A stretch of DNA of 64,000 nucleotides from an uncultured delta proteobacterium (GCA_963761335.1 CAVXGR010000025.1:53670-117669); one strand, 5' to 3'; counted from the stretch's first letter, positions 43,842 to 48,159 are shown. Program-made: numbers and translations. Notes: generated from the sequence alone by a model not told the origin.

Positions 43842-44486
43842 ATGAGCATCGCGGAGATCGACACGGCCACCGCGCGCCGCGTACGGGTTCTGCCGGAGAC
43901 CTGGGCCGCATCCGTGTCGGCGTTCGTCCGCCACTCCGGCTCGAGCGAGGAGGCGGCCGCCGAGAATCGGCCGGAGATGGTATTCAGCCGCGTCTACCTG
44001 CCGACGCAGATGAACCTGTACTCGGATTTCAACATCCGCTCCCGACACTTCCGTTGTCAGGAGACCTTCTTCGTCGAGGCTGGCGACGACGGCTCCATCA
44101 GCGCCGTCGTCTCCCTCGAGGGGTTGCGGACCAAACGCCGGGTTTCGAACGTCAGCCTGATCGCCGCGCGGCTTCCGGCGGACGACGCGGGTGGCTATCT
44201 CGTCCAGCTGCTCGACCAGGTTCTCGAGATCGCCGGGCGTTTCTCGGCCATGAGACGACTGCGCTTCTCGTACGTCTACGACACCAGCTTCGACGCGCCG
44301 CTCGGCGTGCGCATGTCGAACCTGCTCTTCCGGCCGCCGCAGCACCTTCCGTTCTTCGAGGAGGGACGCATCCCCAACGAGACGGGAAAGAATCGCGAGG
44401 TGGTTCTCCTCGCCTTCGCGGGACGCGACCCGAGCCAGAAGATGCCGCTCTCGCCGGCCAACGGCAACGGCGCCTCTGCTCACTGA
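43842..44486 (+). CDS. Unknown cluster protein, paralogous to the C-terminal domain of 47260-48159 (possible GNAT-like fold)
   Basis: IRSRHFRCQETFF and SAMRRL match ITRRHFGQEEVYF and SAMIRL; ATG 16 nt after the precursor stop. Confidence 0.7.
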   Translation: MSIAEIDTATARRVRVLPETWAASVSAFVRHSGSSEEAAAENRPEMVFSRVYLPTQMNLYSDFNIRSRHFRCQETFFVEAGDDGSISAVVSLEGLRTKRRVSNVSLIAARLPADDAGGYLVQLLDQVLEIAGRFSAMRRLRFSYVYDTSFDAPLGVRMSNLLFRPPQHLPFFEEGRIPNETGKNREVVLLAFAGRDPSQKMPLSPANGNGASAH

Positions 44487-44496
44487 GCCTGCGGCC

Positions 44497-45048
44497 ATGT
44501 CGGTCTATCGCGCCTCGGCCGACCTGTTCGTCGGCGGATTGACCGCGGGTCTGGTGGTGATTCTCGCCATCGCCGTCGTCTCCATGGGAGTCGCCTTCGT
44601 GGCGCTTCCGAACACTCTGGTGCGCGCCTTCACGGCCTTCGGAATTCTCATCTGTGTCGCCATTCCCGTCGGCGCGTATCTCTGGGGGCCGCGGGGATAC
44701 GAGATCACCTCGACCACGCTGGTGGTGAAGCGGCCCATCGGCAACGTCGACATTCCGCTGTCGACGGTGCGCGGCGTGCGCACCAGCGATCGCTTCATGG
44801 GCCTCTCTCTCAAGACCTTTCCGGGCGGCAACAGCGGCCTCTTCGGCATGTACGGCACCTTCTACAGCTCCGATCTCGGCCACTTTCGCATGTACTCCCA
44901 GCGCGCCAGCAAGCTGGTCATCCTCGAGACCACAGGTCAGCCGGTGGTGATCTCGCCGGACGACCGCGAGCGTTTCATCAGCGATCTGCAGGAACGGCTG
45001 CGGGCCATCGGCGCGACGGCGCCCCCGGCGAAGGAGACGCCCGGATGA
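44497..45048 (+). CDS. Membrane protein with a bacterial PH domain (bPH_5-like), candidate immunity protein
   Basis: Two N-terminal TM helices, then PRGYEI..LVVKRPIG..GNSGLFGMYGTF..VVISPDD. Confidence 0.75.
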   Translation: MSVYRASADLFVGGLTAGLVVILAIAVVSMGVAFVALPNTLVRAFTAFGILICVAIPVGAYLWGPRGYEITSTTLVVKRPIGNVDIPLSTVRGVRTSDRFMGLSLKTFPGGNSGLFGMYGTFYSSDLGHFRMYSQRASKLVILETTGQPVVISPDDRERFISDLQERLRAIGATAPPAKETPG

Positions 45049-46018: not shown

Positions 46019-47242
46019 GTGTCAGAAACCAATTGGAAGAAATACGAGCTCGAGATCACTCCGGAGATGATCGCCGGCGTCGAGGAGTACAACGACCTGA
46101 TCGTCTCGCGGAGCTTCATCGACGACCGCGGCATCTTCTGGAATCAGGACAGCGGCGACGACTACCTGCCGTCGCTGCGCAGCGGCCTGCAGATCCAGTG
46201 GACCTACTCGAAGCTGTGCAACTTCAGCTGCAATCACTGCTTCAACGGCTCGAGCCCGGCCTGGAAGGGATTCGAGGCGGACCCCTTCCGCATCGTCGAC
46301 AACATGCTGACGGCGAAGCCCTACAACGTCTGTCTGTGCGGCGGCGAGCCGTTCACATGGAAGCCCCTCTACGCGATCATCGAGAAGATGCGGGCCGGGG
46401 GCATCCCCCTGGTGAGCACCGTCAGCAACGGCTACCTGGCCACACCCGACAACATCAAGCGCCTTCACGATGCCGGCCTGACCAACATGCAGATCAGCCT
46501 GGACGGCATCAACGACGAGCAGTTCATCGAGCTGCGCAAGAAGAAGGACGGCCTGGGGAAAGCGGCGGCAGCCGTGGAGGAGTGCCTGAAGCACGACTGG
46601 TCGGATCTCTCCGTTTCCTTCACGCCGACGAAGAGCAACGTCGGCAGCTGGAAAGACTTCTGCCACTACTGGGCCGGGCGCGGGGTGACCCACATCCGCA
46701 CCCAGCCGTTCATGCCGATCGGCACCGGCACCGGAGCCTTGGCTCTGATGCCGACGGACGAGCAGTACCTGCGCTTCCACATGGACACCGTCGACCTGAT
46801 CGAAGAGCTGCCGGGATGCTTCATCGACTGGGGGGATCCGCTCGAGCACGTGTGGTTCTACACCCGCACTCCGGCGTCGCCGTGGAGCTACGGCATCCAG
46901 ACCGACGGCTGGTTCGAGCTCTCCTGCTACATCCCGGTGCTCCTCGGCAACGCCCTGGAGCATTCGATCGAGGAGTACTGGGCGCGCAGCCCGAAGAAGC
47001 TGTGGAACGCGCCGATCATGCGCCGCTTCGCCGCCTCGCTGATCAACATGGAGGGGATGTCGAAGCTCGACCTGCCGATCTATCGGGAGGAGTCGCTGCA
47101 CATCGACATCTTCGACGACGAGCAGCTGGATCTGTTCATGACCACCGATGACCTGGAGCAGCTCCGTGCCCTGAGCGCCGAGAACCTCGAGCGCTTCCAT
47201 GCCCGCTTCGCGCGAGAGCCGGGAAGCGCCCAGAGCGATTGA
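46019..47242 (+). CDS. Radical SAM enzyme with a degenerate SPASM/twitch region, candidate peptide epimerase
   Basis: CNFSCNHC, GGEP, SNG and QISLDG; C-terminal GIQTDGWFELSCYIPVLLGN..SIEEYW has a single Cys; RBS aggag. Confidence 0.8.
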   Translation: MSETNWKKYELEITPEMIAGVEEYNDLIVSRSFIDDRGIFWNQDSGDDYLPSLRSGLQIQWTYSKLCNFSCNHCFNGSSPAWKGFEADPFRIVDNMLTAKPYNVCLCGGEPFTWKPLYAIIEKMRAGGIPLVSTVSNGYLATPDNIKRLHDAGLTNMQISLDGINDEQFIELRKKKDGLGKAAAAVEECLKHDWSDLSVSFTPTKSNVGSWKDFCHYWAGRGVTHIRTQPFMPIGTGTGALALMPTDEQYLRFHMDTVDLIEELPGCFIDWGDPLEHVWFYTRTPASPWSYGIQTDGWFELSCYIPVLLGNALEHSIEEYWARSPKKLWNAPIMRRFAASLINMEGMSKLDLPIYREESLHIDIFDDEQLDLFMTTDDLEQLRALSAENLERFHARFAREPGSAQSD

Positions 47243-47259
47243 ATCCCGGAGGTCCACCG

Positions 47260-48159
47260 ATGTCTGTCCGCTGCTTCACCCGAGACGAGAACGACGGCAT
47301 TCACGTGATCTTCCCGGTCGAGGGACCGATGAAGCAGAACTGCCTGCTGGTGAACGACTCGGTGCAATTCATCTTCGATCGGGTGCGCGGCGGCATGCGC
47401 CTGGACGAGCTCCGCGACGCCTACCTGGAACGCGCCCGCGAGGAGTATCGCCGCGATCTCGATGCCTGGGACGGCAATGATGCGGAGGCCAAGCCGCGCG
47501 AGCCACAGGAACGCAAAGCCCTCTTCGACCTCTATCGCGTTCTGTTGAACCTGCAGGACCACGCCATCTGCGACTACCGGCACGAGGAGCTGCGCTCGCT
47601 GCTGCCGCAGGGCAGGGAGCTGCACGGGACCTCGCAGCTCATGCCGGTGGTCGCCATTCCCAAGACGGCGCGCTTCCTCACCCGCGCCCTGTCGCGGAGC
47701 AGCGATGTGCGGATCTTCTATGCCCTGCCGTCAGCGGCGAACCTCGATCCGCAGCACTTCGCCGCCGAGCGCATCACCCGGCGCCATTTCGGCCAGGAGG
47801 AGGTGTACTTCATCCAGCTCGACAAGAAGGGGGAGGTCGAGGCCTGCACCGTGGTCAGCGGCTTCGCCATACAGCCGTACTCTCTGGTCTCGAGCTTCAT
47901 CGCCGCGGTGGGCCATTCCGACGACGACTTCCGCCAGAGAGTCGGCGCGCATTTCTCCCGCGTCTGCGGCCTCCTGTCCATCGTCACCCTGTCGGCCATG
48001 ATCCGCCTGCCGGTGCTGACCGGAGAAGGCGCCGACGTCTACACCGACGCCGGCTTTCTCGAGCTGGTCGGCGAGCTGGGCTTCCGCAAGTGCCTGGACC
48101 TGCCCGAGGAGCGGGGCGAAGACGGCGGCATCATCACCTATGACAAGACACTCTTCTGA
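47260..48159 (+). CDS. RRE (PqqD-like) domain fused to an unknown domain
   Basis: N-terminal beta strands, then LVNDSVQFIFDRVRGGMRLDELRD...DLYRVLLNLQDHAI (PqqD-like pattern); RBS ggagg. Confidence 0.6.
   Translation: MSVRCFTRDENDGIHVIFPVEGPMKQNCLLVNDSVQFIFDRVRGGMRLDELRDAYLERAREEYRRDLDAWDGNDAEAKPREPQERKALFDLYRVLLNLQDHAICDYRHEELRSLLPQGRELHGTSQLMPVVAIPKTARFLTRALSRSSDVRIFYALPSAANLDPQHFAAERITRRHFGQEEVYFIQLDKKGEVEACTVVSGFAIQPYSLVSSFIAAVGHSDDDFRQRVGAHFSRVCGLLSIVTLSAMIRLPVLTGEGADVYTDAGFLELVGELGFRKCLDLPEERGEDGGIITYDKTLF

Follow-up and report, generated by a model that had tools for sequence, protein, structure and literature searches.

How is a polytheonamide-type peptide handed to its modifying enzymes when its precursor has only a short leader? 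Few ribosomal peptides are modified as heavily as those of the polytheonamide type, and the known clusters that make them depend on a large, protein-like NHLP leader. We analyzed a gene cluster for a peptide that is made by ribosomes and then modified post-translationally (RiPP) in an uncultured delta proteobacterium (GCA_963761335.1, CAVXGR010000025.1:53670-117669; this whole stretch of 64,000 nt is called the window). The cluster appears to represent a different solution: a short lasso-type leader, a PqqD-type RiPP recognition element (RRE) fused to a seemingly degenerate domain with a GCN5-related N-acyltransferase (GNAT) fold, and a free paralog of that domain. The two proteins in question are P0001 (214 aa; 43842..44486, plus strand), the free-standing paralog without an RRE, and P0002 (299 aa; 47260-48159). 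Residues 1-120 of P0002 (47260..47619, plus strand) comprise the RRE, assigned from the PqqD matches of its relatives, and a conserved linker; residues 121-299 (47620..48159, plus strand) form the domain paralogous to P0001, whose GNAT fold is predicted from an AlphaFold2 (AF2) model and from Foldseek and VIA-align searches. The reading that we favor, with a probability of about 0.45, makes P0002 an adaptor on which the leader docks: its cofactor-less GNAT-like module, perhaps together with P0001, would hold the core peptide for enzymes that have no RRE of their own.

P0001 and P0002 are paralogs

The window has a GC content of ~68% and is crowded with spurious open reading frames (ORFs), so reading frames were chosen by GC content at third codon positions (GC3), which is 0.87 for the P0001 gene and 0.88 for the P0002 gene. 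Start codons are common to all 14 P0001-family members and all 13 P0002-family members, and both ORFs are real genes at the coordinates given here.

A preliminary description of the locus had aligned P0001 by eye with the C-terminal ~180 aa of P0002, and both BLASTP and hhalign agree with it. BLASTP gave a match of 27.7 bits (E = 1e-4, 19/67 identical, P0001 53-115 against P0002 156-222) that takes in the IRSRHF.../ITRRHF... block. When the alignment of the P0001 family (14 sequences) was compared with that of the P0002 family (13 sequences) by hhalign, the probability was 90.4% (E = 1.4e-6, 160 columns, P0001 16-188 against P0002 127-292), and the three blocks matched by eye, including SAMRRL/SAMIRL and FFEEGRIPNETG/FRKCLDLPEERG, are all aligned in it. 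With a 25-sequence profile, in which the close P0002 family is joined by full-length distant relatives, the match to the P0001 family reached 99.2% (E = 1.2e-19, 176 columns, P0001 10-191 against P0002 121-295). A hidden Markov model (HMM) of the same 25 sequences, run against the organism's own genome translated in all six frames, recovered P0002 (E = 3.9e-106) and P0001 (E = 1.0e-15, profile 102-278), and no third match was found there. By BLASTP, hhalign, and the own-genome search alike, the similarity is far above chance; P0001 and P0002 are paralogous, with residues ~121-295 of P0002 involved.

A predicted GNAT fold without the acyl-CoA loop

The AF2 model of P0002, built from a 13-sequence alignment, has a mean predicted local distance difference test score (pLDDT) of 85.4 and a predicted template modeling score (pTM) of 0.81; pLDDT is below 50 for residues 1-30 only, and mostly >85 in residues 121-299. 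The P0001 model has a pLDDT of 78.6 and a pTM of 0.77. Searches of the PDB with Foldseek (E ≤ 0.001) returned 244 matches for P0002 and 260 for P0001. GNATs head both lists, and the leading rows are GNAT acyltransferases, e.g., 1yvo, 7bxz, 5dwn, 1vhs, and SpeG. VIA-align, a structure search independent of Foldseek, gave Z = 13.7 for P0002 (4lua_A, root-mean-square deviation 3.6 Å over 150 residues, model residues 121-299), with 219 chains at Z ≥ 8. For P0001 it gave Z = 10.3 (9mto_B, 4.2 Å over 135 residues), and 67 chains reached Z ≥ 8; its top rows are nearly all GNATs for both proteins. Both models follow the GNAT element order β1-α1-α2-β2-β3-β4-α3-β5-α4-β6(-β7). The domain common to both proteins adopts a GNAT fold in the predicted structures, in line with the GNAT-like fold proposed in the preliminary description.

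Neither protein has a Pfam or NCBIfam match at E ≤ 1, and profiles of the two close families recover no PDB sequence at E ≤ 10. GNAT models of Pfam match none of the 14 P0001-family members, and Acetyltransf_1 matches 2 of 25 P0002-family members, both below threshold (16.2 and 14.0 bits, cut-off 20.7). Seven canonical GNATs from the same genome, all showing an RGxGLGR loop after β4, served as a comparison set; hhalign against them was not significant for the P0002 family (E = 0.21) or the P0001 family (E = 0.45).

Motif A of GNATs is the Q/R-x-x-G-x-G/A pyrophosphate-binding loop between β4 and α3. The hhalign alignment of the P0002 family makes sense topologically and places the canonical RGxGLGR loop opposite SDDDFRQRVGAHF of P0002, a segment neither rich in Gly nor conserved. 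The corresponding columns have neither property in either family, and the β4-α3 loop of the P0002 model is just 3 residues long. Motif A was thus found neither in the alignments of the two families nor in the P0002 model, and the shared domain is best described, from sequence and model, as a presumably degenerate GNAT that lacks the loop for acyl-coenzyme A (acyl-CoA).

Several polar residues, specific to the family, are kept in both paralogs (P0002/P0001): R175-H176/R68-H69 at the end of α2, E181/E74 at the start of β2, R249/R141 in β5, and E284/E180 in the β6-β7 region. R249 and E284 of P0002 are conserved at ≥90% in the 25-sequence family.

The preliminary description had offered terminal acylation, peptidase, and chaperone activity as guesses, together with a putative heterodimer for leader delivery. 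The GNAT fold stands in the models; simple terminal acylation by a GNAT is nevertheless not our default reading, because the acyl-CoA motif and a significant GNAT sequence signal are missing in both families. Nothing was found in support of a peptidase: the fold is GNAT-like, and Cys and His residues conserved within the families fail to align between the paralogs (C72 of P0001 lies opposite Q179 of P0002).

The N-terminus of P0002 is by sequence a PqqD-type RRE

A PqqD-like N-terminus had been expected from the sequence, and matches of the relatives bear this out. P0002 itself has no Pfam PqqD match at E ≤ 1; it is as a family that it belongs to PF05402. Among 20 relatives scanned, 13 match Pfam PqqD at E ≤ 1, nine of them above the gathering cut-off of 23.4 bits. 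In NCBIfam, 11 of 25 family members match NF033530 (lasso_PqqD, "lasso peptide biosynthesis PqqD family chaperone") and 6/25 match TIGR03859 (PqqD). The best PDB matches of the 25-sequence profile are two lasso RREs, TfuB1 (6jx3_B, E = 0.0052) and TbiB1 (5v1u_A, E = 0.011), and those that follow are unrelated (E ≥ 0.17). Four columns are invariant in the 25-sequence family (P19, G22, N32, and D90), all of them inside this domain. By sequence, then, the N-terminus of P0002 is classed as an RRE of the PqqD type, and its nearest counterparts are lasso B1 proteins.

A PqqD-type RRE is a winged helix-turn-helix of three strands and three helices; in the AF2 model, this part shows confident helices at 33-43, 48-69, and 84-100, and the expected strand region (1-30) has pLDDT < 50; structure-search matches of the full P0002 model are dominated by the GNAT domain. 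When 400 other genomes of the phylum were searched with the 25-sequence profile, 32 had a match. All 35 matches listed in these genomes span profile positions 7-113 only, in open frames mostly of 82-250 codons, and the GNAT-like part is absent from the matches listed.

Three Cys residues of the RRE domain (C5, C28, and C104) are invariant among the 13 sequences of the close family, and H101 of the same domain is almost invariant there; the four are not kept in the wider P0002 family. A metal site or a disulfide might be built from these residues.

The precursor and its short leader

The precursor peptide P0029 (100 aa; 43523..43825, plus strand; GC3 0.86) is preceded by an AGGAG ribosome-binding site 7 nt upstream. 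It has no Pfam match. Its leader of ~27-29 aa begins with MYESPRL, and within a total of 100 aa there is no long leader of the NHLP/Nif11 type. The core is Asn/Val/Ala-periodic with VLVV at its end, and a variable C-terminal tail follows. The core contains no Lys, Orn, or other amine, and its N-terminus is blocked while the leader is attached.

We found 10 homologs of the precursor. The MYESPxL leader motif is kept in 11/11 sequences, and M1, Y2, E3, S4, P5, L7, N14, Y17, G18, G20, G25, and C27 are invariant in all of them. The length of the periodic core varies among the 11, and two of them end directly after a hydrophobic VVLVI, without the C-terminal HYxPxG...DPR tail; the tail is therefore dispensable.

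Lasso B1 RREs bind a recognition sequence given as Y(x)2PxL(x)3G (10.1101/2024.12.31.630886). Y2, P5, and L7 of the precursor, conserved in 11/11, correspond to its Y(x)2PxL portion; the (x)3G portion is not kept, with N11 in place of the Gly. The papers searched yielded no occurrence of the leader strings MYESPRL, MYESPKL, or YESPRLV and no description of an MYESPxL precursor family.

The invariant Cys27 lies at the junction of leader and core.

Rarity, relatives, and gene order

Both families are small. A search of 5.8 billion protein clusters yielded a P0001 family of 14 and a P0002 family of 13 members, window copies included, all derived from metagenomes or assemblies and none with a protein name. 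An exhaustive HMMER search of 1.84 billion representatives with the P0002 family profile returned 28 proteins at E ≤ 0.001. No locus with a P0002 relative was found among species-representative genomes besides the organism's own, and none of 60 genomes of relatives has a match. One distant relative of P0002 is a hypothetical protein of a Phycisphaeraceae metagenome-assembled genome.

A metagenome scan gave one locus, L003 (5.6 kb), where the P0002 relative is 46% identical. L003 keeps the order conserved unknown protein, radical S-adenosylmethionine (SAM) enzyme, P0002 family, N-methyltransferase, B12 radical SAM enzyme, with identities to the window proteins of 32% (E = 1e-35), 72%, 53%, and 62% (the enzyme at 49342-51276) for the four flanking proteins. 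Members of the P0001, P0002, and precursor families also occur on equally sized contigs (115823, 6132, and 15844 bp; three cases besides the window), which suggests that the three families travel together. In the window, P0001 starts 16 nt after the precursor stop codon and ~2.8 kb upstream of P0002.

Look-alikes found with a protein language model, which we treat as leads only, place P0002 with PqqD and PqqD+GNAT clusters (0.92-0.94) and P0001 weakly with GNATs. From such leads, other PqqD+GNAT fusions, unnamed, are suggested in Bacillota and Actinomycetota.

P0002 as a proposed leader-docking adaptor

We infer from these observations a role for P0002 as the leader-recognition subunit of the cluster. 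Its N-terminal RRE would dock the short MYESPxL leader. Its C-terminal domain and P0001 would be non-catalytic modules of GNAT fold, now devoid of the acyl-CoA loop, and by analogy with tandem GNATs their two lobes may form a platform, possibly as a two-lobed, "tandem-GNAT-like" pair. Such a platform could hold the very hydrophobic Asn/Val/Ala core, in the manner of a chaperone, and present it to the products of the flanking genes (the radical SAM enzyme and the methyltransferases), in which no RRE is detectable. A trans-acting protein would then in effect substitute for the protein-like NHLP leader. If the pair is such a substrate-holding adaptor, this would explain how an extremely hydrophobic core is handled by enzymes without an RRE, and the short leader could be a portable one for engineering such peptides.

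Several points weigh against this reading. A ~90-aa RRE is enough for leader delivery in pyrroloquinoline quinone (PQQ) and lasso systems; that ~180 extra residues and a second paralog have been retained therefore suggests an additional activity. The polar residues common to both paralogs would also fit a catalytic site, and the loss of CoA binding is read from alignments and a model. The P0001 and P0002 genes are not adjacent. Moreover, no way for the pathway to arrive at an N-terminal cap is apparent, and an acyltransferase would provide one.

The strongest alternative, possible but on the whole doubtful, is that P0002 works as a transferase, either by itself or jointly with P0001: an active member of the GNAT superfamily whose donor site is non-canonical and which its RRE guides to the precursor. 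The donor could be acyl-CoA bound differently, acyl-acyl carrier protein (acyl-ACP), or an aminoacyl-tRNA, and the product could be, e.g., a hydrophobic N-terminal cap replacing the keto-acyl cap that polytheonamide and aeronamide owe to PoyF/AerF. The predicted GNAT fold of both proteins, their common polar residues, and the presence of Cys27 in every precursor are consistent with a transferase, and the structural matches of P0001 include non-CoA or tandem GNATs (FemA 1lrz, Z = 8.4; 2wpw, Z = 8.9). Among the candidate maturases of NHLP/Nif11 clusters, GNATs rank third in frequency, and acylation of Orn/Lys has been described for KspN and PhaN (PMC8784127). No LanM-like dehydratase of the PoyF/AerF type was found among the window genes scanned with Pfam, while the aeronamide cap needs AerF (PMC9060474). 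A transferase is, however, difficult to reconcile with the missing Q/RxxGxG/A loop and with the failure of any GNAT sequence model to reach threshold. The core has no side-chain amine, its N-terminus is blocked until the leader is removed, and Pfam searches revealed no acyl-donor genes (ACP or ligase) in the cluster.

A bolder proposal goes further, and we regard it as a long shot: the RRE-tethered GNAT-fold protein without a CoA motif and its free paralog would be a RiPP maturase of a novel type that performs a chemistry of its own, in which an S-to-N acyl shift after leader removal gives an N-acyl cap and replaces the dehydratase route of polytheonamide and aeronamide, and the product would belong to a new family of β-helical peptides recognized through a lasso-type leader.

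It is also improbable that the paralogs act separately, with P0002 as the leader adaptor or enzyme and P0001 binding the precursor or the finished peptide alone, e.g., for self-protection or as a holding factor within the producer. Gene order is compatible with this, since P0001 lies next to the precursor gene and ~2.8 kb from P0002, and adjacency elsewhere is implied by a P0001-family member and a precursor on equally sized 1668-bp contigs; P0001 is also farther from canonical GNATs than P0002 (Z = 10.3 vs. 13.7). Yet on sufficiently long contigs (the three of 115823, 6132, and 15844 bp) the families seem to co-travel, and the conserved polar residues are identical in the two proteins. Finally, a similarity due to chance or composition, or to spurious ORFs in GC-rich DNA, would suit a window of ~68% GC full of such ORFs and a BLASTP match just 28% identical over 67 residues, but is refuted by the GC3 of both genes, by start positions shared with 13 and 12 homologs, by the hhalign E-value of 1.2e-19, and by confident AF2 models with the same fold.

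If the pair is catalytic rather than an adaptor, it would be a new GNAT-derived maturase; either way, it represents a rare (about 28 in 1.84 billion proteins), uncharacterized, and compact family.

Comparison with known systems

The functional analogy that we favor for the adaptor role of P0002 is with the Ocin-ThiF-like F proteins of thiopeptide and heterocycloanthracin clusters. In these, as in P0002, an RRE is joined to a non-catalytic, enzyme-like domain, and the peptide is delivered to separate enzymes (PMC7470986). The partner fold is E1/ThiF-like in F proteins and GNAT-like here, with no sequence relation between the two.

Lasso B1 (E) proteins, discrete PqqD-type RREs such as TfuB1 (6jx3) and TbiB1 (5v1u), resemble P0002 by profile matches, and the YxxPxL start of the leader is common to the lasso recognition sequence and the precursor studied here. 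In contrast to lasso B1, the RRE of P0002 is fused to a predicted GNAT-fold domain and is encoded between a radical SAM enzyme and a methyltransferase; Pfam found no lasso protease (B2) and no lasso cyclase among the window genes scanned. PqqD serves PqqE as a trans-acting peptide chaperone. There, as here, a PqqD-family domain stands beside a radical SAM enzyme without a Pfam-detected RRE; PqqD, however, is a protein of ~90 aa without a GNAT-like domain.

GNAT folds have been described in RiPP clusters, proteusin clusters included (PMC8784127; 10.1101/2024.12.31.630886), with KspN and PhaN of the selidamides and IatT and AlbT of lasso peptides as examples that share the fold with P0001 and P0002. 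These are recognized GNATs (PF00583) that acylate Lys/Orn amines, and the passages that describe them mention no RRE fusion. P0001 and P0002, in contrast, fail GNAT sequence models, appear to lack the CoA loop, and accompany a substrate without Lys or Orn. Two GNAT lobes in one functional unit are seen in FemA (1lrz) and in a tandem GNAT of the clavulanic acid pathway (2wpw), where the lobes are fused in one chain; here they are on separate proteins, and their pairing, drawn by analogy, is putative.

With the channel-forming proteusin clusters of polytheonamide (poy) and aeronamide (aer), the locus has in common an AerE-like N-methyltransferase, TIGR03975 B12 enzymes, a radical SAM enzyme, and a core rich in Asn/Val/Ala. 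In aeronamide, the leader spans 100 residues, and the pathway comprises AerD, AerC, AerE, the dehydratase AerF, and the protease AerH (PMC9060474). The cluster studied here differs in its leader of ~27-29 aa, in the absence of a LanM-like dehydratase by Pfam, and in the additional RRE-GNAT-like protein and its paralog.

The individual folds, and the principle of an RRE joined to an enzyme-derived domain, are already known. Three variations on them are new, to judge by the papers searched: the fusion of an RRE with a GNAT-like domain in which no CoA motif is found, the occurrence of a free-standing paralog of this domain within one cluster, and a polytheonamide-type enzyme set combined with a lasso-type short leader. 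No RRE-GNAT fusion in a proteusin-type cluster was found in the titles and abstract openings of the papers listed, and the main text of the RRE-Finder paper contains neither "acetyltransferase" nor "GNAT", although its supplements may list fusion partners.

Other genes of the cluster and the window

Downstream of P0001 lie a membrane protein that carries a bacterial PH domain (183 aa; 44497..45048, plus strand; Pfam bPH_5, E = 7.7e-19; GC3 0.86) and the conserved unknown protein that is syntenic in L003 (320 aa; 45045..46007, plus strand; no Pfam match above cut-off). The radical SAM enzyme that follows (407 aa; 46019..47242, plus strand; Pfam Radical_SAM, E = 2.1e-16) is from its context a presumed peptide epimerase. 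Its radical SAM match begins at residue 64, and Pfam found no PqqD/RRE domain in it.

The gene after P0002 overlaps its end by 20 nt and encodes a SAM-dependent, HemK/AerE/PoyE-like N-methyltransferase (48140..49345, plus strand; Pfam MTS, E = 1.7e-13). Its closest PDB match is 7rc2 (E = 3.7e-10), with GenN nearly tied; 7rc2 is AerE of the aeronamide pathway (PMC9060474). Next come a B12-binding radical SAM enzyme (644 aa; 49342..51276, plus strand; Pfam Radical_SAM and B12-binding) and two enzymes (51287..53227 and 53237..55162, both on the plus strand) that match the NCBIfam model TIGR03975, "RiPP maturation radical SAM C-methyltransferase", with 599.5 and 587.3 bits, respectively. Given the AerE-like N-methyltransferase and the two TIGR03975 enzymes, the cluster is polytheonamide/aeronamide-like.

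Farther downstream, all on the plus strand, are an ABC exporter without a C39 peptidase domain (571 aa; 55159..56874; Pfam ABC_membrane and ABC_tran), an unknown protein (187 aa; 56875..57438; GC3 0.90; no Pfam match), a β-lactamase-family protein (410 aa; 57410..58642; Pfam Beta-lactamase2, E = 1e-18), and a fourth B12-binding radical SAM enzyme (58306..60573; Pfam Radical_SAM, E = 3.3e-15, with a weak B12-binding match). The true start of the last is probably near 58640, because the GC3 frame changes near 58600. GC3 also fixed the frames of the first B12-binding radical SAM enzyme, of the exporter, and of the 187-aa unknown protein: the longest ATG/GTG ORFs there, at 49329-51323 (GC3 0.48) and 55254-57413 (GC3 0.41), are in the wrong frame.

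No classical peptidase was found among the window genes scanned with Pfam. The β-lactamase-family (serine hydrolase) protein at 57410-58642 is the sole hydrolase-like gene product seen within the cluster, and it is a candidate peptidase for removal of the leader or tail from a peptide rich in D-residues.

Upstream, a Gly-rich protein bearing a dockerin-like repeat (555 aa; 41841-43508; Pfam Dockerin_1, E = 8.2e-6) ends 14 nt 5′ of the precursor gene. Glucan-related genes unrelated to the present finding lie still farther upstream (6229-10514 and 16813-20886); they encode MdoG (E = 6.4e-196), a large glycosyltransferase, and a GH94 phosphorylase. Elsewhere in the organism's own genome, two near-identical canonical GNAT genes (L017 and L018) occur on separate contigs (C7 and C8), and their near-identity suggests a recent duplication or a repeated element.

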